A DNA stretch of 64,000 bases from Pseudomonadota bacterium (lineage in GTDB: Bacteria > Pseudomonadota > Alphaproteobacteria > Micavibrionales > UBA2020). Of the stretch, positions 3,931-64,000 are shown one piece after another. The stretch is from assembly GCA_021845905.1 (NCBI GenBank), contig JAJZVA010000002.1, positions 76,577 to 140,576 on the forward strand, written 5' to 3'. The stretch's first letter is position 1. Every line of letters begins with the position of its first letter. Position numbers and translations under genes: made by a program. The notes beneath the pieces were generated by a model. It worked only from the letters and a program-made list of their open reading frames with translations. It was not told the origin of the DNA and did not search any database.

Positions 3931-3982
3931 TGGACGATTTTTACGGCCGGGGGCGCTGGATGATTTTTACGGCCGGGGGCCG
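3931..3982. repeat. 26-bp tandem direct repeat x2 (tggaYgatttttacggccggggg..) spanning the stop codon and last codons of the minus-strand ORF 3967-4617
   Basis: Copies 3931-3956 and 3957-3982 differ at about 3 positions; read directly from sequence. Confidence 0.85.
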
Positions 3983-4617
3983 TTGCCGCCGCGTTTGTTG
4001 CGCGGTTTTGCCGCAGGCGGCGTTTCCTTGCCGCCCAGCTTTTCGGCCAGTTTGACGATCTCCGCCAGCACCGGCGCGTTTTGCACGGTGAGGCCGGCCA
4101 TGTCGGCATAATCCTGCAGACTCGGCATGATGGGATCTTCACTGTCTTCCAGCGAAAAGGCGCTGTATCGCGCGCGGATCTCCTGCAGCTGTTCCGGCGC
4201 GGCGGTCTTTGCGAACTGTTCCATTTCTTTCATGTCCGTAAGGATCCCTGCGGCGATCAGCGTGAACGCGCCCTGGCGCGCTTCGAGGGGAATCCGGGGG
4301 AATTTTTCCACGCCGGCAGGGTGCGTGCCGTAGGCATAGGCGATCATGTAATCGACGGCTTGCACGGGCAAAGCCGCTTCGATCCGCCGGTTCAGCGCGG
4401 CATCTTCATTGTAAACGGCAGCCATTTGAACCGGCAGCGCCACCGCCGCCGCGATCAGCGCGGGATCGTTGGGATAGAGGGCGGAAACCGTTTCGGCGAT
4501 TTTCAGGACCTGATCGTCAAAATCGACCATCCCCTGATCGACGTATTTTTTCAGGAACGCATAGGCAGCTTTGACCTCGGGATGCTGTGAAAGTGTTGTC
4601 TCTTCAAAAGGTTTCAT
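3967..4617 (-). CDS. hypothetical protein (orphan) with basic/proline C-terminal tail ..KPRNKRGGNGPRP
   Basis: 216-aa ORF with GC3-rich codons, inserted convergent to tkt and divergent from gap; AT-rich upstream region 4618-4779; no motif recognised. Confidence 0.6.
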   Translation of the reverse strand: MKPFEETTLSQHPEVKAAYAFLKKYVDQGMVDFDDQVLKIAETVSALYPNDPALIAAAVALPVQMAAVYNEDAALNRRIEAALPVQAVDYMIAYAYGTHPAGVEKFPRIPLEARQGAFTLIAAGILTDMKEMEQFAKTAAPEQLQEIRARYSAFSLEDSEDPIMPSLQDYADMAGLTVQNAPVLAEIVKLAEKLGGKETPPAAKPRNKRGGNGPRP

Positions 4618-4779
4618 ATTATTCTCTCCATAATTTTAATTTTTACCATAACGCGGGAGAACTTATAGCATATCTGAAAAATGTCAACACCCTATGTGAA
4701 ATAATAATCATACCAACCCTTTAGCTCGACCGCAAACTGGCGTACAACAAAAACACAAAGGTATTTTGAGGAGAACATC

Positions 4780-5830: not shown

Positions 5831-6337
5831 ATGGCGGCAAAGTTGATCGGAAACGTTTTCAAATCCCTCTATCGCGGCGGGGAGCATCTCACGGATTCGC
5901 TGTTGCGCGACATGGAGCCCGCGAAGGCGCATCGCATCGGCCGCGTCGTCGACGCGGGCGCGGGCGCGCTGGTCACGTACATGAGCGCGGCTGGCATCGT
6001 CGGCAACGTCATGGCCGTGGCGACCATCGCGTCGGCGGCGGCGTTCGTGTCCGCGCCGGTGATGGCGGTGACGCTCGCCTCGGCCGCGCTGTTCGGCACG
6101 CTGAATGTCCTGGCCGCGACGTTCGGCCTCGGCCTCCTCGGCGCGGCGGCGCAGAAGTTCGGCGTCATGTCTCCGCGCGAGGTCGCGCGCCGCGCCGCGC
6201 GGGAAACCGTCCGCCCGCTCGCCTGGACGGCGCGAAAGCTCCGCCATCCGTTCCAAAAAGCGCATGACGGGCAGACGGCGCGAAAGGCCGCGCGGCAAAA
6301 GCCCGCGCCGCGCGCAACCGTCAAACATAAGCTGTGA
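5831..6337 (+). CDS. hypothetical Ala-rich membrane protein with basic tail
   Basis: 168-aa ORF, RBS aaagga 8 nt upstream, strong GC3 bias, two or three hydrophobic stretches; occupies the slot where pgk is often found. Confidence 0.5.
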   Translation: MAAKLIGNVFKSLYRGGEHLTDSLLRDMEPAKAHRIGRVVDAGAGALVTYMSAAGIVGNVMAVATIASAAAFVSAPVMAVTLASAALFGTLNVLAATFGLGLLGAAAQKFGVMSPREVARRAARETVRPLAWTARKLRHPFQKAHDGQTARKAARQKPAPRATVKHKL

Positions 6338-12604: not shown

Positions 12605-13081
12605 ATGCCTAAAGGGAACCGCCAACGTGGAAAACAAAGCCTGCCCGCCCTGCCTGACGGCGGGGGCGCGCTTTCAGCTTCTCCGCGCCGCAAGGCGGCT
12701 GACGCAAAAGCCCAGCGCCGCTGGCTTTCCGGCATGATCGCGGGGCAGATCGTTTTCTTCGCGCTGGCCGTGCATGAAATCCCGCTCCTGATGGTGCCGT
12801 CCGCCGCCATTCTTCCGTTGCTTTTCGCCGCGACTTTGACGGGCGGAGTGCTGGGCGGCTTCGTCCAGTCGCGCCTTACCGGCAGGACGACGGATGCCGC
12901 GCAGATGCCGGTGCGCTCTTATATTTTTCAGGCGCTGGCCGAAACCAACCGCAAGCTGGCCGAAATGTTCGTCGAGGAAGAATTCAACGAAGCGGCCAAC
13001 AGCAACTCCGACAGCCGCCGCCTCAAGACCAAGCCGGAGCTGAAAGTCGCGCCGCCGTCAGTGGCTCCGCCACGTTTTTAA
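12605..13081 (+). CDS. hypothetical membrane protein (2 TM) with basic/proline tail
   Basis: 158 aa from ATG 12605; codons from the alternative ATG 12548 to 12604 are AT-rich at third positions, so the shorter form is preferred. Confidence 0.5.
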   Translation: MPKGNRQRGKQSLPALPDGGGALSASPRRKAADAKAQRRWLSGMIAGQIVFFALAVHEIPLLMVPSAAILPLLFAATLTGGVLGGFVQSRLTGRTTDAAQMPVRSYIFQALAETNRKLAEMFVEEEFNEAANSNSDSRRLKTKPELKVAPPSVAPPRF

Positions 13082-19315: not shown

Positions 19316-20440
19316 ATGATGAGGAAGTTCTGTTTTCTTGCTGTTTTTCTGATCTGCGCGGCGGCGCTTCCGGCGCGGGCGCAGATCGTCCAGCCGCCCG
19401 TGCCGCAGGAGACGGCGGAGAAAGACGGGCGCATCGGCACGGTCATCGACGTCGAAGGCCCCGCCGTCCTCACGCCGGTCGGCGGCATGCCCGCCGAAGC
19501 CGCCGTCAACATGCCGGTTTATCTCAACGACATCGCGCAGACGGGCGCGCACGCCCGGCTCTTCATTTTGTTCATCGACAACACCAACGTCGTCCTCTCG
19601 TCCAACGCCATGTTGCGGATCGACAAATACGTTTACGATCCCGATGACGCCACCAGCGCCGACAACAACGCCACTTATACCATCGAGGGCGCGTTCGAAT
19701 ACGTCAGCGGACTGATCGGCCACCGCAAGGACCCGGACGTGCATGTGGAAACGCCGGTCGGTTCCATCGGCATCCGCGGCACGGACTTCTGGGCGGGGCC
19801 GATGGACGGCCAGTATCAGGTGGCGGTGAACGAAGGGCGGGTTTCGCTCAAGACAGACGGCGGCGAGGAGATCGTCAACAAGGGCGAGGGCACTTACGTG
19901 CGCGGCATGTTCGACCGCCCGGCGCCGGCGGAAATCTGGAGCGCGGACAGGTTCCGGCGCATGGCGGCGGAAGTGCGGCTCGCGCGCTATGCCGCGGCCC
20001 TGCGGCGCATGCACGCGCTGCAAAGCCGCCAGCCGGCGTTCAGGGAGGTTTACCGCGCCTATGTGCGCCGCGCCCATCCGCATTGGCTGCGGGATCTTCA
20101 TCCGCGCGGGATGGAGGGCAAAACCGGCGCGGAAAGAATCAGGCAGGAATGGAACGCGCGCAAGTCCGAAGCCGCGCCCGGCCGCGCGGAGAAGAGCCGG
20201 ATGGAAAAAGACCGCACCGAGATGTGGCGGAGCCGCTGGCGCGCCTGGCGGCAACAGCACAGCCACGGCATGCGCGAACAACAGGGTCTGCCGCAGAAAA
20301 ATCAGCAGCGGGAAAGCCTCCGGCCGGAAGACCGGCAACGGGAAAAAGGCGCCGCGCGTCGCCGCGCCCGGCAGACATGGGAAAAAGACCGTGAACGCGG
20401 GGCGAAGAAGCGCCGCGCCGCCGAGGGCACGCGGTATTGA
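19316..20440 (+). CDS. secreted FecR-domain protein with long Arg/Glu/Lys-rich C-terminal half
   Basis: 374 aa; signal peptide MMRKFCFLAVFLICAAALPARA|Q; FecR-like beta region (..VETPVGSIGIRGTDFW..VAVNEGRVSL..); starts 19 nt after the preceding stop. Confidence 0.7.
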   Translation: MMRKFCFLAVFLICAAALPARAQIVQPPVPQETAEKDGRIGTVIDVEGPAVLTPVGGMPAEAAVNMPVYLNDIAQTGAHARLFILFIDNTNVVLSSNAMLRIDKYVYDPDDATSADNNATYTIEGAFEYVSGLIGHRKDPDVHVETPVGSIGIRGTDFWAGPMDGQYQVAVNEGRVSLKTDGGEEIVNKGEGTYVRGMFDRPAPAEIWSADRFRRMAAEVRLARYAAALRRMHALQSRQPAFREVYRAYVRRAHPHWLRDLHPRGMEGKTGAERIRQEWNARKSEAAPGRAEKSRMEKDRTEMWRSRWRAWRQQHSHGMREQQGLPQKNQQRESLRPEDRQREKGAARRRARQTWEKDRERGAKKRRAAEGTRY

Positions 20441-23617: not shown

Positions 23618-24649
23618 ATGTTCGGACGCGAAGCCAGAAGAAGAAAAGAAGAACAAAGACAGCTGGAACAAAGGAAAGAAAACCTGCTGGCCGCGGCGCG
23701 GAACAACGATACCGCCGGCGTGGTGAAATATTTCATGCGCCGCCCGGTTGTGTTTGATGCCTGCCTTGCCGCCGTGGAGGCGGGTTCCGTCGATGCGCTG
23801 AAGGCTTTATTGCGGAGAAACCTGGGTTTTGACTTTTCGGAATTCAGAGACCAGGACGTTCTGAAAGCAAAGCGTCTCGTCAATGCAGCGCGCGGCTCCG
23901 ATAAAGCCGACGCCTTGCTCACCGTCCTTTTCGCGGCAAACGAAACAACGGAATGCGGCAAGCTGCACCAATCGACGTTCATTTGTCCTGAAATCTCCCA
24001 CGACATACTGAGATGCATCCTGCTCATGACGCCATCAACCTTCGAGACCGCCATCGACGTTATCGGCCTTGAGGATACCGACAGGTTGAAATTCATCCTC
24101 GCCTTTCTGCCGAAGGACGGCAGCGGGCAGGGCGCGCTTGACAAGGCGCTGAGCGTTTCCGCTGAAAGAAACGACGTTGAAAAAGCGCAAATGCTCCTCG
24201 ACAAGGGCGCGAACGCCAATCATGCCGAGGCGCAGGCGTTGCAAAACGCGGCGATGGCCGGTCATATGGACATGGTCTGTCTGTTGTTGCTGCATGTCGA
24301 TCTTCTGCTCTACGGCAACGACGTCTCGGCGCAGGTCGAGCATGCCCATCCCGACCTCGCGAAGCTGATCGCCGACGCGACCGCGATTTGCTTCCAGGAA
24401 GAAGAAAGCCCCTTTGTCGCGCTCAATAAAAACATTCTGGAGGAGCGGCAAACGCTCTCCGGCGGCAAAACGCTGACCACGATATTCAATTTCGAGACAC
24501 GGCAGCAGCATAACGCCATCGAAACGCCGCAGGGAACGGAGAAAATGACCACCGTCAACTTCAAGGATATCGATGCCGGCGTCCTTGAAAAAATGCGCCG
24601 CAAACTCGACGGACTCAACGCTGCAAAACGCCTCGTCAACAAACCTTAA
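23618..24649 (+). CDS. ankyrin-repeat-like hypothetical protein, paralog A1
   Basis: 343 aa; MFGREARRRKEEQRQLEQRKE charged N-terminus; ANK-like ..AERNDVEKAQMLLDKGANANHAEAQALQNAAMAGHMDMVCLLL..; conserved C-terminal module ..TLTTIFNFETRQQHNAI..VNFKDIDAGVLEKMRRK. Confidence 0.7.
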   Translation: MFGREARRRKEEQRQLEQRKENLLAAARNNDTAGVVKYFMRRPVVFDACLAAVEAGSVDALKALLRRNLGFDFSEFRDQDVLKAKRLVNAARGSDKADALLTVLFAANETTECGKLHQSTFICPEISHDILRCILLMTPSTFETAIDVIGLEDTDRLKFILAFLPKDGSGQGALDKALSVSAERNDVEKAQMLLDKGANANHAEAQALQNAAMAGHMDMVCLLLLHVDLLLYGNDVSAQVEHAHPDLAKLIADATAICFQEEESPFVALNKNILEERQTLSGGKTLTTIFNFETRQQHNAIETPQGTEKMTTVNFKDIDAGVLEKMRRKLDGLNAAKRLVNKP

Positions 24650-24662
24650 AGGAGAAAAAACC

Positions 24663-25709
24663 ATGTTTGGACGCGAAAGAAAAGCGCGGGAGCGCGCGGA
24701 AGCGGAGCGGCTGGAACAGGAGGCGCGCAAGGCGGCGGCGCGCGCCGCGGACGAGGCGCGGGCGCAAAAACAGCGCGAAGGCCTGGAGGCGGCGCTCAAG
24801 ACGGACGATCCGTCGCTGTTCGACGAGCAATATTTCGTTTTCGACGTCAGCCCGGTCAACAGAATCTACGATGCCGCGAAAAGAGCCATTGCGCAAAACG
24901 CGCCGAAAGTCTTTCATGCGCTGACCCACGGAAAGTTTCCGAACTACTACAGCTCCTTCACCTTCGGGAGCACATGGGAGGAATCAAAACAGAACGTCCG
25001 CCTGTTGCTCGCCGACATATCCGCATCCGCGGAGCCGGGCCTCTTCTGGGAGATCATGCGCGACGGCAATGAAAAATCGACCGTGGATAAACCACGGCTT
25101 GCTTCCGCGGAGTTTCTGACCCCCGCCGCGTCGCCGGAATTCATCCATGACCAGCTCCTCAAGAATCCGGAGCTCTTCACGACCTGCCTTCGCGACATCG
25201 GCGTTCGGGATCCGGAAAAGCTGGAGCTTATCCTTGCCTTCGCGCCGAAAGACGACAGCGCGCACATCGCGCTGGTCGCGGCGGTGGTGGAGGTCTCTCG
25301 AAATGAGGACGCGCTTGATCAGCTCGCGGCGCTTTTGCCGCATATCGATCTGGCGCGGCACGGCGCGCACATGGCGGCGCTGGTCAGGTTTTTCAACCCC
25401 GAGATGGCAAAGCTGATTTCGGATGCGACGGAGATCATGCGCTGCACCCCTGAGGCGGAAGAAACCGTCCATCCGGCGCAGGAGAGCGACATACACGTTG
25501 AAAAGCAGGCCATTCCCGGCGGCGGCACGCTGACGGCCATCTTCAACTTCACGCTCAAACAGCAGCATAACGTCATCAGGATGCCGGGCGAAGACCCTGT
25601 CGCGACCACCGTCCAGTTCAGGGACATCGACAAGGGCGTTCTCGCCGCGATGCGCCGAAAATACGACGCCGCGCAAAAACCGCCGGAAAGCCCGCCGCCC
25701 GCGCCTTAA
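24663..25709 (+). CDS. hypothetical protein, paralog A2 of 23618-24649
   Basis: 348 aa from ATG 24663 (RBS aaaggag); MFGRERKARERAEAERLEQE..; shares LILAFAPKD.., AKLISDATEI.., ..TLTAIFNFTLKQQHNVI..VQFRDIDKGVLAAMRRK with A1. Confidence 0.7.
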   Translation: MFGRERKARERAEAERLEQEARKAAARAADEARAQKQREGLEAALKTDDPSLFDEQYFVFDVSPVNRIYDAAKRAIAQNAPKVFHALTHGKFPNYYSSFTFGSTWEESKQNVRLLLADISASAEPGLFWEIMRDGNEKSTVDKPRLASAEFLTPAASPEFIHDQLLKNPELFTTCLRDIGVRDPEKLELILAFAPKDDSAHIALVAAVVEVSRNEDALDQLAALLPHIDLARHGAHMAALVRFFNPEMAKLISDATEIMRCTPEAEETVHPAQESDIHVEKQAIPGGGTLTAIFNFTLKQQHNVIRMPGEDPVATTVQFRDIDKGVLAAMRRKYDAAQKPPESPPPAP

Positions 25710-27007: not shown

Positions 27008-27712
27008 TTATGCCGTCCTTGCCGCATTGGCGGCATTCGTTTTGTCCGCCGCATTGGCGGCATTCGGTTTCGTCGCGTCCGCGGCATTCGGTTTCATCGC
27101 GTCCGCGGCATTCGGTTTCGTCGCGTCCGCGACGAGGCCGAGGTTGATCTCCAGCGCGCCGCACAGCATCTGCCCGAGGGTGATGTGCATCTCCTGAATG
27201 CGCGCGGTGGTGGCGGAGGGCACGTTGAGAAGAATGTCGCACAGCGGCGCCATCTCGCCGCCGGTCCTGCCGGTCAGCCCGGCGGTGACGATGCTCATTT
27301 TCTTCGCTTCGGCCAGCGCGTTGATGACGTTTTTGCTGTTGCCCGAGGTCGAGATGCCGATGGCGAGATCGCCTTTTTTGCCCAGCGCCGCGACCTGCCT
27401 TGCGAACAGGTGCTCGAAGCCGAAATCGTTGCCGATGGCGGTCAGCGAAGAAGTATCGGTGGTCAGCGCGACGGCGGCGATCGGCGCGCGGTCGGTTTTG
27501 TAGCGCACGGTCAGCTCGGTGGCGAGGTGCTGCGCGTCGCCCGCGCTGCCGCCGTTGCCGAAAAAGAGGATCTTTCCGCCCGCCTTGATGGTGGCGGAGG
27601 CGGCGAGCAGCAGCTCCTCGAACGGCTCGAGCAAGGCGGCGCGGGTCGCCTGTTGCACCGCTTCATGCTCGGCGAATTCCTCCGCCCAGAAACGCTTGCA
27701 TGTGAAGGTCAT
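27008..27712 (-). CDS. SIS-domain phosphoheptose isomerase family (GmhA/DiaA-like) with ~40-aa repetitive C-terminal extension
   Basis: 234 aa; [18 protein letters not shown] and ISTSGNS blocks; tail [33 protein letters not shown].. Confidence 0.85.
27021..27128. repeat. 24-bp in-frame tandem repeat (3 near-perfect copies 27057-27128 plus degenerate copies 27021-27056) encoding the (A-D-A-T/M-K-P-N-A)n tail
   Basis: gcggcattcggtttc[g/a]tcgcgtcc x3 read directly. Confidence 0.9.
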
Positions 27713-31206: not shown

Positions 31207-32411
31207 CACGCCGTCTCTTTGAACAATTCCCGCCCGATCAGCATGCGGCGGATCTCGCTCGTGCCCGCGCCGATCTCGTAGAGTTTCGCGTCGCGCAATA
31301 ATCTGCCCGCCGGATAATCGTTGGTATAGCCGTTGCCGCCGAGGCACTGGATGGCGTCGAGCGCCATCGCGGTGGCTTTTTCGGCGGAATACAAAATCGC
31401 GCCCGCCGCGTCCTTGCGGGTCACTTCGCCGCGGTCGCATGCCTTGCCGACGGCGTAAACGTAAGCGCGGGCGGTGTTCATCATCACATACATGTCGGCG
31501 AGTTTGCCCTGCATGAGCTGGAATTCGCCGATGGATTGGCCGAACTGCTTGCGCTCGTGCAAATAAGGCAACACGATATCGAGGCAGGCCTGCATGATGC
31601 CGAGCGGCCCGCCGGACAAGACGGCGCGTTCGTAATCGAGCCCGCTCATCAGCACTTTCACGCCCTTGCCGACCTCGCCCAGCACGTTTTCCTCCGGCAC
31701 TTCGCAGTTATCGAACACCAGCTCGCAGGTGTTGGAGCCGCGCATGCCGAGCTTGTCGAGCTTCTGCGCGGTGGAAAAACCCTTGAATGTGTTCTCGACC
31801 AGAAACGCGGTGATGCCTTTGCTCCCCGCCGCGGGATCCGTCTTGGCGTAGACCACCAGCGTCGCCGCGTCGGGGCCGTTGGTGATCCACATCTTGTTGC
31901 CGTTGAGGACATAGCGGTCGCCCTTTTTCTCTGCCTTGAGTTTCATCGAAACGACGTCGGAGCCCGCGCCCGGCTCGCTCATGGCGAGCGCGCCGATCTT
32001 TTTGCCGGCGCAGAGGTCGGGCAGGTATTTTTGTTTTTGCGCCGGTGTGCCGTTGAGGTTGATCTGGTTGACGCAGAGGTTGGAAAACGCGCCGTAAGAG
32101 AGGCCGATGCTGGCGGAGGCGCGTGAAATTTCCTCCATCGCAACGATGTGCTCGATGTAGCCCATGCCGGTGCCGCCGTATTCCGGATCGGCGGTGAGCC
32201 CGAGCAATCCCAGTCTGCCCATTTCAGGCCAGAGGTCGTTGGGGAAGGCGTTGTCGTGGTCGACCTGCGCCGCGATCGGCGCGATCTCCTTCTGCGCGAA
32301 ATCCTGCACTGTGGCGCGCAAGGCGTCCGCCGTTTCGCCGAGGTCGAAGTTCAGCGACGGAAAATCCTGCGCCTTGGGAACATAAGTTTCTTTCTTTTGA
32401 GCCTGTGTCAT
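31206..32411 (-). CDS. ivd: acyl-CoA dehydrogenase, isovaleryl-CoA dehydrogenase-like
   Basis: 401 aa; ..[27 protein letters not shown].., C-terminal ..[19 protein letters not shown]. Confidence 0.88.
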
Positions 32412-32568
32412 GAGTTTTTCCTCATTGATTCTTTAAGGTAAAATACCAATCGGAAATATAAAGCAAATGACGGCAAAGGGCGACGCCCTATATTTTTACA
32501 TAGTCATGAAGATATTCACTGTGCAACAGGCCGATTGTTGTTAAGATGATTCGCCAGGGAGGATTATC

Positions 32569-32775
32569 ATGAATGAATTTCTTTTATCGTTTTACGACAG
32601 GTGTTTTAAAGGCGTGCGGGGCACGTATTTCAGTTGCGTGCGGGGCACGACAGCCATCGAATACAGCCTGATCGTCGGCGGGATCGCCGTGGCCATTTCC
32701 GTAGTCGTTTTTGCGGTCGGCAGCGATCTCAAGGTGCTGTTTCAGGCTATCGCCACGATGGCGGCGAAATTCTGA
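32569..32775 (+). CDS. flp: Flp/Fap-family type IVb prepilin (orphan: no tad/cpa genes in window)
   Basis: 68 aa; processing-site motif G|TTAIEYSLIVGGIAVAI; RBS gggagga. Confidence 0.75.
   Translation: MNEFLLSFYDRCFKGVRGTYFSCVRGTTAIEYSLIVGGIAVAISVVVFAVGSDLKVLFQAIATMAAKF
32612..32649. repeat. 24-bp-period duplication inside the flp leader (gcgtgcggggcacg at 32612 and 32636) duplicating the VRGT residues preceding the cleavage site
   Basis: 14-nt perfect core repeated with 24-nt offset; protein reads ..KGVRGTYFSCVRGT|TAIEY. Confidence 0.8.
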
Positions 32776-32828
32776 TTTTATGAATATGCAAGAATAAGAT
32801 AAATTCCCGTTGCCTTTATATGTTTATC

Positions 32829-33113
32829 GTCCTAGGGTCAGACCTCATTAATCTATGGCAATTCTACGCGAAGCGAAAATGGCGATCCTGCAATGACAAG
32901 GCTGCAGAGCGTAGCGGTTGCTACGGTCAAAGCCTTGGAAGCCGCAGGGCGTCATTTTCGCCGCGCCCGGAAGGGTAAGCCCTCGGCCGCACCGTCTGCG
33001 GCGTCAAAGCAACTGAAGCGTGGGATCCACCACGCTTTCGTTGCTTTTCCTTGCATCCAATACGGCGCAGGGCTTATATAATTCCATAGATTAATGAGGT
33101 GTGATCCTAAGAC
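32829..33113. mobile_element. 285-bp element bounded by 30-bp imperfect terminal inverted repeats (MITE-like, or a structured RNA with a long closing stem)
   Basis: Left gtcctagggtcagacctcattaatctatgg (32829-32858) versus reverse complement of 33084-33113, 27/30 match; interior is G+C-richer than flanks and full of local hairpins. Confidence 0.35.
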
Positions 33114-33148
33114 TTGGGGCATTATAAAACATAATAAAGGAATTTATC

Positions 33149-33298: not shown

Positions 33299-33323
33299 GC
33301 GGCGAAGCGCGCGCCGGTTCTTT

Positions 33324-34207: not shown

Positions 34208-36829
34208 TCAGGCGCCGGGATTTTGCCCGACCGCCCGCTTCTTGCGCGCGGCGCTTCTCTTTTTCGTCACGACGTTGTCGTTGGCGGTTTCGCTCGCCGG
34301 CGGCTCGTTCGGGACGATCGACGGAGCGACGGCGTAACGCCGCTTGTCGTTCATTTCGATCGAGTTGATGACGATCGTCACCGCGCTCTTTTCCGAGGCC
34401 TTCTCGATTTCCTCGCGGTTTTCCATCAGCCACTTGGTGAGCGGATTGATGATCTTGTCGCGAATGACCTTGTCCATCGGACGCGCGCCCATCGTCGGGT
34501 CGTAGCCCATCTTGCAGAGCTCGTCCATCACCTTGGGGGCGACGGAAAGCGACACGCCGGAGAGGCCCTGGCCGTCCGCGTTCGAAAGGCGGGCGCTGAT
34601 GTCGCCGATCTGTTTCTTGGCGATCAGCGCGACGACTTCCTTGGCAAGCGGCAGATAGGTGATGAAGCCGCCGAGCATGTTGATGCGGTTGACCATCTCC
34701 GGACGGAAGAGCGCCGCGCGCGCCGGCGCGAAGGCCGTGGCGGGAATCGGCTGGCTGATGGCTTGGGCGTAGATTTTCTCCAGCGCCGTTTTCAGCTCTT
34801 CCGGTTCGAGGGTGTTCTTCCCGAAGCCCATGCCGCCGGTTTTTCCGCCCTTGGAGATGAGCTCCATGGCTTCGGACGCGCCAGCATTGGTCGTCATCAG
34901 GATGATGGTGTTGTTGAACTTGATGGTGTTGCCGTGGTTGTCCGTCGTCTGGCCGTCCTGCAGGATGGGCAGAAGGATGTTGAACACGTCCGGGTGCGCC
35001 TTTTCGATTTCATCGAGCAGGAGAATAGTGTAGGGGCGCTGGCGGATCTGTTCGAACACCGGCTCGGAATCCTCGAAGCCGACGAAGCCCGGAGGCGCGC
35101 CGATCAGGCGGGAAACCGCGTGCTTTTCGGCGTATTCGGACATGTTGAGGGTGATCACCGCGTCTTCGGAACCGAAGAGGTAGCGGGCGAGCGCCTTGGC
35201 GGTTTCGGTCTTGCCGGTGCCGGTCGGGCCTTGCAGCACGAAGCAACCCCACGGCTGGCGCGGGTTGGGCAGGCCGCCGCGCGCGCCGATCAGCGCGTCG
35301 GTGATGCGCAGGAGGTCGGGCTGGCCGAGCACTTTCTTCGGCAGTTCCTCTTCGAGCTTGAGGAAACGCTCCTTGTCCTTCTGCGCGAGGAAGTCCTGCG
35401 ACAGGCCGGACATTTGCGACACGGCGGCGATGATGTCCTTGCGCGTCACGGTTACGCGGCCGTCGAATTCCGCGCCGGAAGCGGCGGTATTCATGGCTTT
35501 TTCGCCCTTGCGCGGCTGGGCTTCCTGCGGCGCGAAGCGGTTGGTCATGGTGATGAGGTATTTGAGGTCGTCGTCCGAGATCGCTTCCGAGAGACCGTTG
35601 TGCTCCTCCGTCAGCGGCCACAGCTTGCGCAGGATGGCGAAGGTCGTTTCATCGTCCGGCGGCATGAGGCGCGTCTTCTCGAAGCGGCTGGCGAGCGCCG
35701 GGTCCTTTTCGATGTGCTTGCGGTATTCCTTGTCGGTGGTCGTGCCGAGGACGGAGACGCCCTTGGCGGTGAGGAACGGCTTCATCATGTTGCCGGCGTC
35801 CGTGCCGCCCTGGGCCATGCCGGCCGTGAGCTGCGAGTGGATTTCGTCGATGGCGAGGATGATCTTCTTGCCGCGGAAGATGCCGCCGCGCTCGGCGAGG
35901 CCGTCGATCAGCGGTTTCAGCCTTTCCTCGAATTCGCCGCGGAACTTTGCGCCGGCGTTCATGCTTTGCAGGTCGAGTTCGAGGACGCGCGCGCCTTCGA
36001 GGCTGATGGGCAGCTTGCCCGTTTCGGCGTTGTCGACGAGATACTGGGCGATGCCGGAGAACATGGTGCTTTTGCCCACGCCGGCGTCGCCTGTGAAGCA
36101 CTGGCTCGACTGCTTGCGGCGGCCGAGGACGCGCATCGCCTGCTCGATTTCCTGATCGCGGCCGATGACGGGGTCAAGATCGCCGCGGCGGGCCATTTCG
36201 GTCAGGTCCTTGCAGTATTTGACAAGGGCCTGCTCGAGCTGGCTGTCGGAGATTTTATAGTTGCGCTGCGCCGTATTGTTGAACGGCACGCGCACCGGAC
36301 GCGGCTTTTGCACCGCGAGCCGCGGCGGAACGGGCGCGCCGTGCGCGGCGCGCGCGGTTTGGGCGATGCCGTTCGTGTGTTGCGGCGGCAGGGAGAGATA
36401 GACCGTGCCCGGCTGGTTCGCGGGCGAATCGACGTTCTCGAAGCGCGCCGGGAAGTCGGCGCCGAAGTTTTCCTGCGCGATGAGTTTTTTCGATTCGGGG
36501 GTCAGTTCGAAGGCGATGCGTCCGCCGGCCGAAGGTACGGCCCTGTAGGTGACGTCAATCGTCTCGCCTTCATAGTCGCCCGCGTTGGTCATGGCGATCT
36601 TGTAGACAGTGACGGTGACTGCCGCGCGGGTGCCGCTGACGGTCATCATTTGCTTGTCGTCGAACGCGTAGATTTTCTGCCCCGCCGCGAGCGGTTCGCC
36701 ATTATAGGCGTGCAACGGCCGTTGCGGTTCCCCATCCTTGAATTCCAGCGCGTACTGGCGGGTGCTTTTGGCGTCCGTCAGGTAGATGAAGCCGTTGAAG
36801 TTTTCGGTGTTGGCGGGATCTGTCGTCAT
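34208..36829 (-). CDS. atypical two-ring Clp/Hsp100 AAA+ ATPase lacking Clp_N and M-domain, with an unrecognised ~215-aa N-terminal domain
   Basis: 873 aa; D1 ..DLDPVIGRDQEIEQAMRVLGRRKQSSQCFTGDAGVGKST.. Walker B ILAIDEIH; D2 ..VLQGPTGTGKTETAKALA.. Walker B ILLLDEIEKAH, ..RPEMVNRI..; N-terminal 215 aa beta-rich with no Clp_N repeat; basic tail ..TKKRSAARKKRAVGQNPGA. Confidence 0.85.
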   Translation of the reverse strand: MTTDPANTENFNGFIYLTDAKSTRQYALEFKDGEPQRPLHAYNGEPLAAGQKIYAFDDKQMMTVSGTRAAVTVTVYKIAMTNAGDYEGETIDVTYRAVPSAGGRIAFELTPESKKLIAQENFGADFPARFENVDSPANQPGTVYLSLPPQHTNGIAQTARAAHGAPVPPRLAVQKPRPVRVPFNNTAQRNYKISDSQLEQALVKYCKDLTEMARRGDLDPVIGRDQEIEQAMRVLGRRKQSSQCFTGDAGVGKSTMFSGIAQYLVDNAETGKLPISLEGARVLELDLQSMNAGAKFRGEFEERLKPLIDGLAERGGIFRGKKIILAIDEIHSQLTAGMAQGGTDAGNMMKPFLTAKGVSVLGTTTDKEYRKHIEKDPALASRFEKTRLMPPDDETTFAILRKLWPLTEEHNGLSEAISDDDLKYLITMTNRFAPQEAQPRKGEKAMNTAASGAEFDGRVTVTRKDIIAAVSQMSGLSQDFLAQKDKERFLKLEEELPKKVLGQPDLLRITDALIGARGGLPNPRQPWGCFVLQGPTGTGKTETAKALARYLFGSEDAVITLNMSEYAEKHAVSRLIGAPPGFVGFEDSEPVFEQIRQRPYTILLLDEIEKAHPDVFNILLPILQDGQTTDNHGNTIKFNNTIILMTTNAGASEAMELISKGGKTGGMGFGKNTLEPEELKTALEKIYAQAISQPIPATAFAPARAALFRPEMVNRINMLGGFITYLPLAKEVVALIAKKQIGDISARLSNADGQGLSGVSLSVAPKVMDELCKMGYDPTMGARPMDKVIRDKIINPLTKWLMENREEIEKASEKSAVTIVINSIEMNDKRRYAVAPSIVPNEPPASETANDNVVTKKRSAARKKRAVGQNPGA

Positions 36830-43348: not shown

Positions 43349-43834
43349 ATGGATTTCAAGGCTGAAAATTTTCCTCTCTATATCCTCTTGCTTCAAAACG
43401 GCACGCCGGAAGCGAAAAAACTGGCCGGATTCTTCGAACTGGCGCGGACGGGCGACGACCTCGACAGGTATGCCTTCGCGCAAGGCATGCAGGCGCTGGC
43501 GCAACTGGGCCGCATGCCCGACCAGACGGAAGAGCTGAACGGCAAAACGCTCGAAGCCTGCCTTGCCGTTTTCGAGGAGCAGGGCGTGCGCCACGCGCAG
43601 AGCGCTTTTATGGCGGGATACAACCGACTCCATGGCTTGGGATGCGCGCCCGACCCCGCCGCCGGAAAACGCTGGCTCGACAAGGCCGGGGAACTTTCAG
43701 CAGAGGGCCGCATGCGCAAGTCGCTGGAAGACTTCAACAGAGAGGTAAAGGCGATCCGCGTCATCGCCGATGAAAAACCCTTCAAAAGCAAACGCAAGCG
43801 CCGTTGGAACAATCCTTATTGGCCGCGGCCCTGA
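43349..43834 (+). CDS. hypothetical Sel1-like-repeat protein with KRKRR tail
   Basis: 161 aa; RBS aaaggag; ..HAQSAFMAGYNRLHGLGCAPDPAAGKRWLDKAGE.. fits the SLR pattern; tail ..KPFKSKRKRRWNNPYWPRP; AT-rich flanks. Confidence 0.6.
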   Translation: MDFKAENFPLYILLLQNGTPEAKKLAGFFELARTGDDLDRYAFAQGMQALAQLGRMPDQTEELNGKTLEACLAVFEEQGVRHAQSAFMAGYNRLHGLGCAPDPAAGKRWLDKAGELSAEGRMRKSLEDFNREVKAIRVIADEKPFKSKRKRRWNNPYWPRP

Positions 43835-43864
43835 GGCGAAGGGCGTTGCCGTTCCTTGGCGGCT

Positions 43865-44251
43865 TTAAACAGCCGGCGCGGGTTTTTTTGTCTTTTTCCT
43901 GCCCGGGATGTAATAGATATCCGGCACATGGCCATTATATGCCACCGCCATCGCCGCCCCAAAGAAAGCCGTAGGCAGGCCAAACGACAGGCCGAAAGCA
44001 GCTGCTCCGGCGAGGCTGCCGGTCAGCAGACCGACCAGCGCGAAGCCGCCGCCAACGACAACGCCCGACTCTATGCCGGTGACGGCGGCGGTGAACGCCA
44101 CGCGCAGAACATGTTTCGAGATGCGCTTTGCTGCGGTCAGGCCATTTTTAAGCACGCCGGCGGCGCAGTTGAAGGCGTGCCTGTTCGTTTGGGTGATATT
44201 ATTGCGGGTATTCGAATCATTCAGGAAAAACGCTTCATCGTGGAATTTCAT
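43865..44251 (-). CDS. hypothetical small membrane protein (Gly/Ala-rich TMs) with basic tail
   Basis: 128 aa; ..GVVVGGGFALVGLLTGSLAGAAAFGLSFGLPTAFFGAAMAVA..; tail ..GRKKTKKPAPAV. Confidence 0.45.
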   Translation of the reverse strand: MKFHDEAFFLNDSNTRNNITQTNRHAFNCAAGVLKNGLTAAKRISKHVLRVAFTAAVTGIESGVVVGGGFALVGLLTGSLAGAAAFGLSFGLPTAFFGAAMAVAYNGHVPDIYYIPGRKKTKKPAPAV

Positions 44252-55642: not shown

Positions 55643-56428
55643 TCAGCGCGGGGGCTTGATCCGCACCGCCGGTTTCGATTTTCGCGCGGCGGCGCGCAAG
55701 GCTTCGGTGCGGCGGGCGATCTCTCCGGCCGTTCCGGCGGACGGAGCTGTTTCCGGCGGGCGGTCTTTCTCTGCCATCTGCGGGATGGCGCACCCGTAAA
55801 TCTCGATCTTCTCGCAGTTGGCGCTTCCGAAGTTGTTGTTCCTCGCGTAGTCGAGCGCGACGGAGAAATCCGCGCCGCCGGCGCACAGCAGCTTCAGCGT
55901 CGCGACGGACTGGCAGGCCGTCACCGCATGGGCGAGGATGCAACCCGCCGCGCGGTCGCCGACGGCGGCGTTGGGATTGGCGCCCAGATCCAGCAATACC
56001 CCGGTCAGGGTCTCCGCCATGAAATGCGATATCATCGCGGAGAGAAGCGCGGCATCGAGCGTCTGCTGTCTTTTCGCGGCGGGCACGGCGGCGAGCGCGA
56101 CGCGCGCGGCTGCCAAAGGATCGGCGGGCGCCGGATAGTGGGATCCGGCGCACAGCAGGTCCCCCAGTTCATGGCCGACGTTGATCTTGATTTCCTCGTG
56201 CATGTTGCCGTAGACGGCGTTGAGAAAATGAAACTTGAGCGGTTCCGCCAGCAGCGTCTGGATGTTCTCAGGCCGCCCCTGATGGAAGGCGGCGCGCGCG
56301 CCGAGCTTCAGCATCATGATTTTGTCGTAGGGTTTTTCTTCCGCTTTCAGCGCGGCATAGGCCGCCTCGAAATCGGCCTTTGTGCCGTCGCGGCCGAGCT
56401 CGAAATAATATTGTCCGTCTTGCGCCAT
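55643..56428 (-). CDS. ankyrin-like hypothetical protein, paralog B1
   Basis: 261 aa; ..GVLLDLGANPNAAVGDRAAGCILAHAVTACQSVATLKLLCAGGADFSVAL..; tail ..AAARKSKPAVRIKPPR. Confidence 0.6.
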   Translation of the reverse strand: MAQDGQYYFELGRDGTKADFEAAYAALKAEEKPYDKIMMLKLGARAAFHQGRPENIQTLLAEPLKFHFLNAVYGNMHEEIKINVGHELGDLLCAGSHYPAPADPLAAARVALAAVPAAKRQQTLDAALLSAMISHFMAETLTGVLLDLGANPNAAVGDRAAGCILAHAVTACQSVATLKLLCAGGADFSVALDYARNNNFGSANCEKIEIYGCAIPQMAEKDRPPETAPSAGTAGEIARRTEALRAAARKSKPAVRIKPPR

Positions 56429-56437
56429 GCCGTGCTC

Positions 56438-57280
56438 CTATTTCCGCGGGCGGCGGGCAACGGGCCGCTTGTTGCGCGCGGCATGGAGCCGGCGGACGTG
56501 CGGTTTTTCAGGCGGCTGTTTCGCCGCGGGCGCGTTCGCCCTGATCTCCGATTCCAGAGCGTCGACCCGTTTCGTCAGTTCAAAAAGGTTCTCCGCCAGC
56601 GCGATGATCAGTTCATCCTTCCTTTGCGCGTCGGGATCGTCGGCGGGCGGGGTTACTTTTTGGCGGTAGTCCTCCAGCCTGTCGCGGAAATTCTCGGCCA
56701 GACCGTGTCTAACCATGTAATCTTCCGCCGCCGCGAAATCGCCGCCATGGGTAGAGAGAAGCTTGATGACGGTGCGCGGCAGATTGTTGCGGACGGCAGC
56801 CGTCATGGCGAGACCTGCTTCGATCGTCTTGCTGTTGGCGTCCGCACCCGCGGCGAGCAGAGCGCCGATGAACGTTTCCCCGTATTTTGCTTCAATGGCG
56901 TCGACCAGCGCTTTATCGAGCACGTCCTGCATTTTATATGGGGGCACTTTTTCGAGCGCCAGCTTCACCATCGCTTCAGGTTCCTTGCTTCCGTCCGAGA
57001 GAAAGTAGAGCTGTAGCATGACGTTGATTCTCATTTCAAAAGGCCAGGAGTCCCGATCGTCTGCATAATAGAAGTACGCGAATTCTTCCGGAGCGCCGAG
57101 CACGGTTTGCATTTTCTCCGGTCTGCCGGCGTAAAAAGCCGCGGCTGCGCCGTCAAAAAGCAGGTTTATCTCATTGCGCGGGTCGTGTTTGTTTTTGAGT
57201 TTTTTGAAGGTTTTCTCGAACTCTTCGAGCGTGCATTCGCGTCCCAGCGTGCGGTAATCCGTTTTTCTGCCGAAGATCAT
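56438..57280 (-). CDS. ankyrin-like hypothetical protein, paralog B2
   Basis: 280 aa; RBS aggag; shares ..AAF(Y/H).GRPE..QT.L..P..F.., LDKAL/LDAAL and ..LL..GA(D/N).N.. blocks with B1; tail ..HVRRLHAARNKRPVARRPRK. Confidence 0.6.
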   Translation of the reverse strand: MIFGRKTDYRTLGRECTLEEFEKTFKKLKNKHDPRNEINLLFDGAAAAFYAGRPEKMQTVLGAPEEFAYFYYADDRDSWPFEMRINVMLQLYFLSDGSKEPEAMVKLALEKVPPYKMQDVLDKALVDAIEAKYGETFIGALLAAGADANSKTIEAGLAMTAAVRNNLPRTVIKLLSTHGGDFAAAEDYMVRHGLAENFRDRLEDYRQKVTPPADDPDAQRKDELIIALAENLFELTKRVDALESEIRANAPAAKQPPEKPHVRRLHAARNKRPVARRPRK

Positions 57281-58795: not shown

Positions 58796-59794
58796 TTATT
58801 GCTTATTTTGCTTTTCACCGGCGCGGCGCGCGCGGAGCCATTTGTCGATGTCGCGCTTATGTTGCTGTAATGTCTTGGCAAATGTGCTGCCGCCGGAGCC
58901 GTTGGCGACGAAATAGAAATCGTCCGTTTGCGCGGGATTCAAGGCGGCTTCCAATGCCGCGACGCCCGGATTGCAGATCGCGCCGGGCGGCAGCCCCGCG
59001 ACGGCATAGGTGTTGTAGGGCGATTTTATTTTAAGGTCGGCGGCGGTGAGCGAACGCCCGAGCGGGTCTTGCCCCTGCGTCAGCGCGAAAATGACCGTCG
59101 GGTCGGATTGCAGCGGGATGCCGCGTTTCAGGCGGTTGTAAAAGACGCCGGCGATGCGCGCGCGGTCGGAGGCCCTGCCGGTTTCCTTCTCGACGATCGA
59201 GGCGAGGATCACGGCCTGCTGTTCGGTCACGGGCAGATTGGGCGCGCGTTTGGTCCACAGCGCGGCCATTTCCTCCTTCATCGCCGCCTGCATGCGGCGG
59301 ATGAGGCTCATGCGCGTGTCGCCGTAGGAAAAATCGTAAGTATTGGGCAGGAGGCTGCCCTCGGGTGGCATGGGCGCGATGGCGCCGGCAAGCGCTTTTT
59401 CATTGTCGAGAATGCGCACGATGTCCGGCGAGGTCAGCCCTTCCGGGATGGTGACTTTGCGCTGGTAGGTTTTGCCGCTTTGCAGCAGCGTGACGAGATC
59501 GAGGATGCTGATATGGGCGGGGATGTCGTATTCCCCCGCTTTCAGCGGCGCGATGCGGCCTTGCAGCCGCGCTTCGATGCGAAACGCGCGGGCGCTGCCG
59601 ATGACGTCTTCTTTTTCCAGCGCGCGCGCCATGACGCCTGTCGCCGTGCCGGGCGGAATATACACAAGTTTTTGCGCGGGCAACGGCCCTTGCGCGTTGA
59701 TCGCCGCGTCGAACCAGTGCGCGGCGGCGAAGACGAAAGCAAGGACGATGACGACCGCGGCGAGCAGCAGGCCTTTTACGGCGGACATTCTCAC
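58796..59794 (-). CDS. mltG: endolytic murein transglycosylase (YceG-like)
   Basis: 332 aa; N-terminal TM; ..ASIVEKETG...R..IAGVFYNRL..GIPLQSDPTV.., ..YNTY...GLPPGAICNPG. Confidence 0.92.
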   Translation of the reverse strand: MRMSAVKGLLLAAVVIVLAFVFAAAHWFDAAINAQGPLPAQKLVYIPPGTATGVMARALEKEDVIGSARAFRIEARLQGRIAPLKAGEYDIPAHISILDLVTLLQSGKTYQRKVTIPEGLTSPDIVRILDNEKALAGAIAPMPPEGSLLPNTYDFSYGDTRMSLIRRMQAAMKEEMAALWTKRAPNLPVTEQQAVILASIVEKETGRASDRARIAGVFYNRLKRGIPLQSDPTVIFALTQGQDPLGRSLTAADLKIKSPYNTYAVAGLPPGAICNPGVAALEAALNPAQTDDFYFVANGSGGSTFAKTLQQHKRDIDKWLRARRAGEKQNKQ

Positions 59795-61574: not shown

Positions 61575-62669
61575 TCATTTGAAAAGCAGGGCGCGGATCT
61601 TTTTCCAGCCGCGCGACGCGGCGGGTTTCGGCGACGGATTTTCCTTGAGCGTGCGTTTTTTATCCATTGCGACGGAGGCATCGAGGATAAATCCGCTGTC
61701 TTTTTCGTGTTGCGCAAGTTCTTTTTGCAGGACGTTGAACTGGGCGAAAGCCGTGGATGCGGGATCGTCAGCGATTATTTTCGCGATCTTTTCCTGTATA
61801 TCGGCGTCATCAAGGAGGCGTCTGCCCGCGCGGTAGATGTCGTCGTTATCCTTGTGCGCGCGCATGGCGCGTGCAACTGCTTCCAGAGTTTCGGCGAATT
61901 CTTCGGGCGTGGCTTTTTTTTGATAGAGTTTCTTCGTTTCCCCATAAATCTCGCCAATTTTTTCCACGGTCGCTTCGTTCAGCGCGTAATCCTCCGCGAT
62001 GCGCGCCGCCAGCTCGGCCGTTTGTTGTAGCGAGAGAGATGCGATCTCGATTTCGCCTTCATCCACGATGCGGGCGATTTTTTCGATGACGGCGGTGGTG
62101 TCGTGGATGGGTGGATTTTCTAACGCAACGCATCCTGCATGAACCCATTTCATATGGGGTATCATATCGGTTTCATCGCCGAAGCGCTGGATATGGCGGA
62201 GCGCCGCAAAGGCGTCTGCCACGCATTCGTTGTGATGGGCGGAATCACTGATCTGCTCAAGAATGTATTCGTCGTTTTCGAAATCTATATATATTCCCCT
62301 GCCTCCTCTTACAAGAAGGTGGCCCATCTCGTGGTCGAGAGAATGAAAATAATCCATTTCGCTGCTATAATGGGCGTAAGGAGAATAAAAATTTTTTTTC
62401 TCTCCAAGGGTGATGATATTCAGCAGTTGCTCTCCCGCATCGAATGCGCTGATCGAGGCGGCGGCATGATCACCTAACCGTTCATGTTTTTTCCGAACGG
62501 CCTCTTTGAACTCCTCCGGAAAAGCGGAGAGCAGCGGGGTCGTCTCCGGCGCGACATAGACCAGCTTTTTCTCGAACGCCATCACTAATCCCGCCATCCG
62601 CGCGGGGAAGGCGTCGTGATATTCCGCCGCGGCGTTGAAAATTTCTCTCAAGGGGAACGCGGCGGTCAC
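61575..62669 (-). CDS. hypothetical HExxH protein, paralog H1 (putative zincin-like)
   Basis: 364 aa; HEMGH; ..ECVADAFAALRHIQRFG.., ..PPIHDTTAV.., ..DIYRAGRR.., ..AQHEKDSGFILD..DKKR.. then basic tail. Confidence 0.65.
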   Translation of the reverse strand: MTAAFPLREIFNAAAEYHDAFPARMAGLVMAFEKKLVYVAPETTPLLSAFPEEFKEAVRKKHERLGDHAAASISAFDAGEQLLNIITLGEKKNFYSPYAHYSSEMDYFHSLDHEMGHLLVRGGRGIYIDFENDEYILEQISDSAHHNECVADAFAALRHIQRFGDETDMIPHMKWVHAGCVALENPPIHDTTAVIEKIARIVDEGEIEIASLSLQQTAELAARIAEDYALNEATVEKIGEIYGETKKLYQKKATPEEFAETLEAVARAMRAHKDNDDIYRAGRRLLDDADIQEKIAKIIADDPASTAFAQFNVLQKELAQHEKDSGFILDASVAMDKKRTLKENPSPKPAASRGWKKIRALLFK

Positions 62670-63661
62670 GGCGCGTTCCTTTCCGGCTTCGGCGCGGGCG
62701 GCGCTTTTCCTGCGGCGCGTTTTTTGTCCACAGCGAGGGCGGGATCGAGGATGAAGCCCGTTTCCTCCTCGTGCTGCGCCATCTTTCTGCGCAGGTTATA
62801 AAGCACGGCGTCGTGGGGCAGTTTGGCGGCGATCATGTCTTTCGTCTTTTTGCATTCGAAACAAAGCCTGCCCGCGCGGTAGATGTCTTCGTCATGCCTG
62901 TTGTCGAGCATGACTTCGGCGATGGTCTTGAAGATATCGCGCAGTTTTCCGCTGTCGGAGAGCGGCCGTTTGTCGGTTGCGACGATCCAGTTGACCGGCG
63001 CGAAAGCATCGCTGATCTTGCCGAGCGTCGCGTCGTCGAGCGCGTAGGCCGCGGCGATTTTGGCAGCGAGCGCGGCGGTTTTCTCCAGCGAGAGCCCGCG
63101 GATGTCGATCTTGCCGCCATCGTGCATGTTGCGGATTTTTTGCACCACGGCGCTGGTGTAATGGATCGGCGGGGGCGTTTCGAAAACCGCATGATGCGCC
63201 AGCTCCGCCGCGGCGTCTTCCGTCATCCCGCCGAAGCGCTGGATATGGCGCAAGGTCGCGAAGGCGTCGGCGGCGCATTCGCCCAGATGCGGCGAGGCTC
63301 CCAGCCCGTTTTCGACAATGAAGTGCCCGGCCTCATGTTCGGCGTCCTGTATCTGGCGGCGGATGTCGCGCTCTTGCGCGCCGGGTTTAAGATCTTTCAT
63401 CGCGATGTGGTTCACGGGAACGAAGCCGATGTAATCCCGCGCGGCGGCGGCGCAGGAGCCGCGCGCCTTCATCCAGTCGAGGCGTTCCTCGATTTTCTTT
63501 TCGGTCAGAGAGGGGTTTTTGGCGATAAAGTCTGCGATTTCCGGCGCGATGAAAATCCGTTCCGTTCCGAGCGTGACGAAGAGATTGGCGAGTTTTTCAG
63601 GAAAGGCCGCGCGGTAAGCGGCGGCGTTGAAGGCTTCCTTCAAAGAAAGCTTTCCGGTCAT
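62666..63661 (-). CDS. hypothetical HExxH protein, paralog H2
   Basis: 331 aa; HEAGH; ..ECAADAFATLRHIQRFG.., ..PPIHYTSAV.., ..DIYRAGRL.., ..AQHEEETGFILD..DKKR..; stop overlaps H1 start (ATGA). Confidence 0.65.
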   Translation of the reverse strand: MTGKLSLKEAFNAAAYRAAFPEKLANLFVTLGTERIFIAPEIADFIAKNPSLTEKKIEERLDWMKARGSCAAAARDYIGFVPVNHIAMKDLKPGAQERDIRRQIQDAEHEAGHFIVENGLGASPHLGECAADAFATLRHIQRFGGMTEDAAAELAHHAVFETPPPIHYTSAVVQKIRNMHDGGKIDIRGLSLEKTAALAAKIAAAYALDDATLGKISDAFAPVNWIVATDKRPLSDSGKLRDIFKTIAEVMLDNRHDEDIYRAGRLCFECKKTKDMIAAKLPHDAVLYNLRRKMAQHEEETGFILDPALAVDKKRAAGKAPPAPKPERNAP

Positions 63662-64000
63662 GGCCTGCCCCCTCCCGGCGCGGCGGGCGGTTTGCGCGCG
63701 GCCTGTTTTTCATGCGCCGCGCCGCCGTCAAGCGTGAAGCCGGTTTCCTTTTCGTGTTGCGCCATGCGGGCGGCCATGGCGCGGAAGGCGGGGTCGCGCT
63801 CGAGCATTTTTCTCGCCAGGGCCCTGACGTCGTCGCGGGCGAGAAACTGGCTGCCCGCGCGGTAGATGTCCGCATCGTTTCTATGTTCCAGCATGATGCC
63901 GGCGATGTCGCGGATGACGTCTGCGCCGCTGCCCGCGCTTTCTCCGCGCAGCACGGGACGGACGGGCGCATAGGCGGCGGCGATTTTTTCCAGCGTCGCG
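63658..64000 (-). CDS. hypothetical protein, paralog H3 (C-terminal part; 5' end beyond window)
   Basis: Frame stays open to the window edge (..ATLEKIAAAYAPV.. aligns with H2 ..ATLGKISDAFAPV..); ..DIYRAGSQ.., ..AQHEKETGFTLD..; stop overlaps H2 start. Confidence 0.6.
   Translation of the reverse strand, partial: ATLEKIAAAYAPVRPVLRGESAGSGADVIRDIAGIMLEHRNDADIYRAGSQFLARDDVRALARKMLERDPAFRAMAARMAQHEKETGFTLDGGAAHEKQAARKPPAAPGGGRP

Follow-up and report, generated by a model that had tools for sequence, protein, structure and literature searches.

The stretch of DNA analysed here (the window) comprises 64,000 nucleotides of contig JAJZVA010000002.1 (positions 76,577 to 140,576; NCBI assembly GCA_021845905.1) from an alphaproteobacterium, and the feature under study is a set of 13 short C-terminal protein tails rich in lysine, arginine and proline. 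The G+C-content of the window is 62%. Gene calling with a codon model followed by a Pfam scan gave 64 genes, 42 of which belong to ordinary Pfam families, including GcvP, Tkt, Gap, PheST, Dxs, IspA, IspH, AccBC, AroQ, GpsA, TsaD, HemCD, FabF, AcpP and MltG. The other 22 match no family or repeat families only and are referred to as orphans. The same sequence is present in several metagenome assemblies and third-party annotation (TPA) metagenome-assembled genomes (MAGs; GCA_027431835.1, GCA_027431775.1, GCA_027431815.1 and GCA_027431655.1). Relatives of Tkt among genome representatives share about 57-66% identity with it, and the best match, at about 65%, indicates a deep alphaproteobacterial lineage.

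All 13 tails quoted in an earlier note on this DNA, as well as four control termini (tkt, gap, dxs and fabF), were recovered exactly by a six-frame search, directly before stop codons. The mean net charge of the last 20 residues was +3.2 in the orphans and +0.24 in the family-assigned proteins (Mann-Whitney U test, p = 1e-4; 22 vs 42 window open reading frames, ORFs), with Lys, Arg and Pro each enriched in the orphan C-termini. A strict tail criterion, net charge of at least +4 and at least seven Lys, Arg and Pro residues together in the last 20, was passed by 11/22 orphans and 2/42 family-assigned proteins (Fisher's test, p = 5e-5), its threshold having been picked post hoc with the data already in view. 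The 13 tails represent nine families, and the difference persisted when paralogues were collapsed (9/18 vs 2/42, p = 1e-4). The division between accessory and housekeeping proteins drawn in the earlier note therefore stands as an enrichment and not as a rule, since MltG, a FecR-domain protein and UbiD carry tails as well.

Elsewhere such sequences are rare. Only 1-1.5% of internal 20-mers of the window proteins and 1/64 of their N-termini passed the strict criterion, and the background rate in 80 other GC-rich alphaproteobacterial loci was 3.3% of 390 ORFs. Among the locus-unique ORFs of those loci, 3/127 (2.4%) passed, all three of them Arg-rich. Because internal, N-terminal and other-alphaproteobacterial controls pass so rarely, the tail pattern is real and organism-specific. 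In 33 hold-out genes from the same genome outside the window, orphans were again more basic (+1.9 vs 0.0, p = 0.03). The scoring of C-termini by functional class proposed in the note thus separated the classes under the strict criterion in the 64 window genes, and by net charge only in the 33 flanking genes. Window and flanks combined gave 11/32 vs 3/65 (p = 2e-4), and the three core exceptions correspond to the background rate of 3-4%. To the left of the window (L112, 2929-3978), the motif ..ATDYSxQKQxLGxK is found at the C-terminus of two adjacent paralogous orphans (130 and 153 aa), whose ends are only mildly basic and lack a Lys/Pro tail; the tail is thus not found on every lineage-specific ORF.

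Table 1. Tail-bearing proteins of the window (positions are those of the window).
Feature	Position	Strand	Description
3967-family ORF	3967..4617	-	Soluble orphan, 216 aa, between tkt and gap; tail ..GGKETPPAAKPRNKRGGNGPRP, quoted 13 aa at 3970-4008
Membrane orphan	5831..6337	+	168 aa, 2-3 Gly/Ala-rich hydrophobic helices; tail 6281-6334
Membrane orphan	12605..13081	+	158 aa by gene calls of public assemblies; two-helix hairpin, both termini basic; tail 13016-13078
FecR-domain protein	19316..20440	+	Signal peptide; long Arg/Lys/Glu-rich C-terminal region ending ..RGAKKRRAAEGTRY
A1, ankyrin-repeat protein	23618..24649	+	343 aa; between ispA and xseB, on opposite strand; tail ..MRRKLDGLNAAKRLVNKP at 24620-24646
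A2, A1 paralogue	24663..25709	+	Probable start Met31 of 24573 ORF; tail ..MRRKYDAAQKPPESPPPAP at 25668-25706
ClpA-like double AAA+ ATPase	34208..36829	-	873 aa; ..ANDN then TKKRSAARKKRAVGQNPGA (34211-34267)
Sel1-like ORF	43349..43834	+	Soluble orphan, 161 aa; tail ..EKPFKSKRKRRWNNPYWPRP at 43775-43831
Membrane orphan	43865..44251	-	128 aa, Gly-rich two-helix hairpin; tail ..GRKKTKKPAPAV at 43868-43903
B1, helical-repeat orphan	55643..56428	-	261 aa; tail ..ARKSKPAVRIKPPR at 55646-55687
B2	56438..57280	-	280 aa, adjoins rhomboid gene; tail ..HVRRLHAARNKRPVARRPRK at 56441-56500
MltG/YceG	58796..59788	-	YceG E = 1e-83; N-terminal membrane anchor; basic tail ..KWLRARRAGEKQNKQ
H1, HExxH family	61575..62669	-	364 aa; tail ..DKKRTLKENPSPKPAASRGWKKIRALLFK at 61578-61664
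H2	62666..63661	-	331 aa as in public gene calls; tail ..DKKRAAGKAPPAPKPERNAP at 62669-62728
H3	63658..64000	-	Cut by window end, 339 aa in full; tail ..HEKQAARKPPAAPGGGRP at 63661-63714

The simplest origin for such tails would be near-neutral: C-termini of young genes drift through stop shifts and indels into GC-rich DNA that encodes basic sequence, and the result has no function. In-frame read-through over 25 codons past the window stops gave 6.5% Lys, 14.2% Arg, 9.3% Pro and 5.6% Asp plus Glu, a net charge of about +3 per 20 aa, so that drift would yield basic ends here. Paralogue tails also vary in length and sequence, as drift would have it. The 13 tails differ from this expectation in composition (14.5% Lys, 12.9% Arg, 15.1% Pro), with Lys 2.2-fold and Pro 1.6-fold higher and a Lys:Arg ratio of about 1.1 vs 0.46 expected. 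Their G+C-content at third codon positions (0.72) is close to that of the gene bodies (0.76), and their preferences for CGC and CCG match those of the bodies. The order of residues is also biased: the Lys-Pro dipeptide (KP) occurs in 12/13 tails vs 5/42 core termini, and KP exceeds PK by 13:2 (shuffle p = 0.008). Drift is further opposed by the low frequency and Arg-rich character of such ends among the locus-unique ORFs of other GC-rich alphaproteobacteria.

Pro is the last residue in six of the 13 tails. Pro-terminated proteins are common in the window in general (10/64 vs 4.4% of the 390 background ORFs) and include the core proteins FabF (..AAP), HemD (..LFP) and an SPFH protein (..PQP); the terminal Pro of FabF and HemD is kept in sister species.

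Comparison between two sister species gave different results for different carriers. In the B and H families, tail identity is 28-47%, with many indels, and body identity is 60-79%; for the B orthologues of the two species the values are 28% and 78%. Across relatives of five families, tail composition is retained and tail sequence is not. The rapid change in B and H again fits drift. In contrast, the tails of MltG and of hyp221 are conserved to the same degree as the bodies. At larger distances, tails are retained over 45-65% identity in the ClpA-like family, and H homologues of four lineages or more still have basic Lys/Pro C-termini, both of which speak against drift. The statement in the earlier note that Lys-rich tails are not a product of drift is accordingly borne out by the Lys/Pro excess, the codon usage and the homologues; read-through here is more basic than the note had assumed. 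Taken together, drift seems an improbable origin.

In the two proteins modelled, H2 and B1, the tails also lie outside the predicted folds. An AlphaFold2 (AF2) model of H2 was predicted with high confidence (predicted local distance difference test score, pLDDT, 90.6; predicted template modelling score, pTM, 0.88), and its last two 10-residue blocks average pLDDT 48-51. In the AF2 model of B1 (pLDDT 72.7), the final 11 aa fall below 50. The tails of H2 and B1 are thus predicted to be disordered. The tails are genuine, maintained and probably disordered cationic C-terminal extensions of about 11-20 residues; they do not form one class.

The three orphans at 5831-6337, 12605-13081 and 43865-44251 contain 2-3 hydrophobic helices with Lys/Arg-rich segments on both sides, and in the first of them the entire C-terminal ~60 aa is basic. 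Because the positive-inside rule predicts basic cytoplasmic termini, these carriers need no shared signal, and the rule is the best explanation for their basic ends. It fits 3/13 carriers; the others have no transmembrane (TM) segment. The protein at 5831-6337 has no match in Pfam or NCBIfam. It was considered as a paralogue of 43865-44251, and this was rejected, as the two are not homologous.

The ClpA-like ATPase had been listed as accessory, and this label did not survive. The protein has a ClpA-like layout with a novel N-domain of about 200 aa and no Clp_N, and an (I/M)GF-type loop was spotted by eye. It scores below the NCBIfam equivalog cut-offs for ClpB, ClpA and ClpV (TssH), with 509, 456 and 447 bits vs 1232, 993 and 885. 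About 80 full-length homologue clusters were found in alphaproteobacterial MAGs at 44-65% identity, scoring 673-1245 bits vs about 430 for ClpB, and the gene is syntenic with accBC-yceI-GST in relatives. Judged by these scores and by synteny, it is a separate family, conserved and not accessory. An NDN/NDD motif followed by a Lys/Arg/Pro tail was present in 36/36 members read and absent from canonical ClpB. The tail of MltG is basic in both sister species, and UbiD, which this genome encodes beyond the window, has the C-terminus ..EKKKPRRRA. MltG is membrane-anchored and periplasmic and the FecR-domain protein has a signal peptide, so the tails also occur on Sec-exported proteins. The tails of the ClpA-like protein and of MltG are features of their respective families, and with the FecR-domain protein added, these carriers amount to about the core background rate. 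A single common route for all 13 carriers, as the note had envisaged, does not accommodate three membrane hairpins and an ATPase that is syntenic clade-wide.

This diversity of carriers (three membrane proteins, MltG, UbiD and the whole ClpA-like family) would be expected if the tails acted as non-export electrostatic tethers, a clade-wide habit in which Lys/Pro tails keep proteins attached to some anionic surface within the cell. The surface may be inner-membrane phospholipid, the nucleoid or RNA, or polyphosphate. Some members of the H family from other lineages replace the Lys/Pro tail with basic-hydrophobic ends (..RRFSKLWQRKI, ..KKPFTKFLRV), and two such ends have a significant helical hydrophobic moment. 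The window's own tails are Pro-rich and non-helical, and an amphipathic-helix test of them favoured neither outcome. In composition (Lys, Pro, Ala), disorder and C-terminal position, the tails are also reminiscent of the DNA-binding tails, histone-H1-like or of the 'PAKKA' type, that some bacterial nucleoid-associated proteins carry, the closest look being that of the ClpA-like family (..KKPARKPRKK..). Unlike those, the window tails are much shorter, non-repeat and located on unrelated enzymes and repeat proteins. A tether would moreover place the MltG tail in the periplasm, far from the nucleoid or the inner leaflet, and it leaves the excess in lineage-specific soluble proteins unaccounted for. 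We consider the tether a serious alternative, although less likely than not.

Five soluble lineage-restricted families account for the excess over background, namely 3967, A1/A2, B1/B2, H1-H4 and the Sel1-like ORF. Their proteins have acidic bodies, no signal peptide and no TM segment. The 3967 family has three homologues in 1.8 billion representatives, all of which end in Lys/Pro tails (..GKTSKPSAANSPKP, ..GKTPKPAAPAASTPAP and ..SRKPPGPRR). ORFs 3967 and 5831 were absent from 80 other alphaproteobacterial tkt loci. A1 matches Ank_4 (33.2 bits, cut-off 22.7) and Ank_2 (32.0 bits, cut-off 27.3) above the gathering score. A2 is 37% identical to A1 and has no Ank match, its sole Pfam match being sub-threshold (TPR_20, 18.9 vs cut-off 25). 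The name Sel1-like, taken over from the earlier note, is kept as a label only, as the Sel1 match of 43349..43834 (19.6 bits) falls below the Pfam cut-off of 30.7. B1 and B2 are 36% identical, and a fold search with B1 returned weak ankyrin-type matches only. In each of the two sister species B is single-copy and occupies the same site, adjoining the rhomboid gene, and the tails of these orthologues carry +5 and +6.

The H family forms an array of four tandem genes between fabG and acpP (L086, 7990-12087), with H4 just past the window end. A word-indexed search of 5.8 billion proteins gave 10 homologous clusters, and a few more members were found in fetched contigs. HExxH, typically DHEMGH, is kept in 9/10 homologues and a ..LRHIQRFG motif in 10/10; the family signature is DHEMGH plus ECAADAFAALRHIQRFG. 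All 10 C-termini are Lys/Arg/Pro-rich and variable in sequence, several ending in -AP and one (P0004) barely basic. The two sister species carry 2-3 H copies with basic tails at the same site. More distant members have C-termini of +2 to +6; they include L102, an array of seven genes in L104 and six loci from metagenomes (L106-L111). No match was obtained in Pfam, NCBIfam or PDB sequences, no relative in a scan of genome representatives and, for H2, none on plasmids. The H2 model had no fold match in the PDB (best Foldseek E 0.5, TM-score < 0.2). H appears to represent a previously undescribed family of HExxH proteins.

The lineage-specific ORFs sit singly or in small tandem arrays within conserved housekeeping clusters: between tkt and gap (3967-4617), gap and the aldolase gene (5831-6337), ispA and xseB (23618-25709), AAA_28 and aroQ-accBC (43349-44251), rhomboid and hemD (55643-57280), and fabG and acpP (61575-64000). 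An origin of the orphans from mobile islands was considered and rejected, as they have no tRNA or integrase, show native codon usage and are syntenic in sister species.

For these five soluble families, the best single reading is that the tails are C-terminal signals for translocation by a VirB/VirD4-type (type IVA) system, which we hold tentatively, as possible rather than probable. It ranks just ahead of the electrostatic tether, followed by near-neutral drift and, last and equal, by a nuclear localisation signal (NLS) and a degron. We infer recognition of the tails by a secretion machine: the exposed cationic tail would dock on an acidic surface of the coupling ATPase, which would then feed the tail-bearing protein into the secretion channel. 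Alphaproteobacterial type IV effectors have at least three His, Arg or Lys residues, a charge of at least +2 in the last 25 aa and a hydrophilic C-terminus (S4TE; PMC3814349). Signals of type IVA secretion systems are positively charged C-termini bound by VirD4, and about one third of the effectors of type IV secretion systems (T4SS) have TM segments (PMC11098119, PMC12981334). Under criteria of the S4TE type, 13/13 tails, 16/22 orphans and 8/42 core proteins passed. The ten carriers with no TM segment (nine orphans and the ClpA-like ATPase) have no signal peptide, and none of them has a hydrophobic segment in the last 30 aa such as LPXTG, PEP-CTERM or GlyGly-CTERM sorting signals include.

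In their likeness to known VirB/VirD4 substrates (Agrobacterium Vir proteins, Bartonella Beps, Anaplasma and Ehrlichia effectors), the tails share a short, hydrophilic, unstructured and net-positive C-terminus, and the carriers share the lack of Sec signals, in some cases ankyrin-type repeats, and an alphaproteobacterial host. Unlike those substrates, the carriers have no BID domain, and the window tails lack R-x7-R-x-R-x-R and are Lys/Pro-rich with recurrent KP and terminal Pro. Signals of the Dot/Icm (type IVB) system are likewise C-terminal and disordered, and differ in being acidic or polar where the window tails are net positive. The Dot/Icm E-block (EExxE in the last 30 aa) was found in 0/13 tails, and a hydrophobic residue at position -3 or -4 in 3/13.

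Several results weigh against a type IV signal. Positive charge alone is weak evidence, because read-through translation of the window DNA is basic to begin with. The S4TE-type criteria have low specificity, as 19% of core proteins pass them. An Arg consensus, R-x7-R-x-R-x-R, or alternatively an RPR motif, has reportedly been described for Agrobacterium by Vergunst et al.; the former occurs in 0/13 tails, even with Lys allowed, and RPR only in B2. The T4SS-type signal proposed in the note is thus supported by published C-terminal criteria and by soluble carriers with no signal peptides, and not by the Arg consensus. No T4SS Pfam family and no coupling protein was found among about 100 genes (about 100 kb, a few percent of the genome), and the annotated neighbours of H and ClpA-like homologues in relatives (L089, L091, L102-L105) were housekeeping genes, with no secretion genes among them. 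Enrichment under the strict criterion was absent in the 33 flanking genes (orphans 0/10 vs 1/23). The clade-wide conservation of the tail on the ClpA-like ATPase shows that such tails can serve non-export roles. Counting every carrier as an effector would put the effector share at 14-20% of genes, and we know of no system with so large a share.

Two candidates for a dedicated machinery were examined and rejected. A virB operon near an SLT-domain ORF was sought in a strain variant (L095), where GNAT and IleRS genes come next. A rhombosortase/GlyGly-CTERM reading, prompted by the rhomboid gene beside B2, fails as the tails have no TM segment.

A broader form of the proposal would be that a short cationic Lys-Pro C-terminal tag, often with Pro at its end, routes 5-15% of lineage-specific soluble proteins, among them the structurally novel HExxH family with its tandem copies within housekeeping operons, to one acidic receptor. 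This receptor would be a T4SS with an unusually large effector repertoire for a GC-rich environmental bacterium, or an undescribed targeting system. We regard this as improbable.

The tails had also been compared to eukaryotic NLSs, by which Lys/Arg clusters would send delivered proteins to a host nucleus. The minimal pattern K-K/R-x-K/R is matched by KRKR in the Sel1-like protein (the clearest case), KKTK in 43865-44251 and KKIR in H1, and the ankyrin repeats of A1 also count in favour. The resemblance is not a shared feature: only 3/13 tails match, one of them on a membrane protein, and most are rich in Lys-Pro and Ala-Pro, not in Lys/Arg clusters. As this reading also presupposes both a delivery system and a eukaryotic host, it is very unlikely.

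AAA+ unfoldases typically engage proteins at disordered termini, and the ClpA-like family is found in the same clade as the families with tails. The tails might on these grounds be recognition tags or degrons for the clade-specific ClpA-like unfoldase of the same window, a purely speculative idea to which we give very little credence, as the ClpA-like ATPase itself bears the same tail.

If the type IV translocation signal is true, this 64-kb window would name five new candidate effector families from an uncultured deep-branching alphaproteobacterium, one of them comprising HExxH proteins with a confident predicted fold and no PDB counterpart, and it would offer a simple sequence rule for mining the remaining repertoire. 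Should the tails carry no signal, the result is a caution that a basic C-terminus is a weak effector predictor in GC-rich genomes.

Some further features of the window and its flanks were recorded. The SIS-domain protein at 27008-27712 has a low-complexity Ala/Asn/Lys tail with imperfect KPNAA-like repeats. Contigs of several assemblies break at 32832-32858 (window ~32400-33300) or run into different neighbours, with a UbiD side (L093), an SLT/GNAT/IleRS side (L095) and an acyl-CoA dehydrogenase side (window, L103). The break adjoins a small Flp/Fap-pilin-like ORF (32638-32775) and could reflect a repeat or a junction that varies among strains. Beside the same pilin ORF lies a 241-aa orphan (33324-34049) with one N-terminal hydrophobic helix and no Pfam match, which may be a Tad-pilus accessory (TadE/TadG-like) protein. 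Outside the window, a flank of the same genome (L093, 13999-22622) encodes functions of anaerobic life (UbiD, two U32 peptidases, a radical SAM protein, NrdD and two Crp/Fnr regulators) along with a Host_attach (PF10116) ORF; this gene set hints that the organism may be a facultative anaerobe, possibly attached to a surface or a host.

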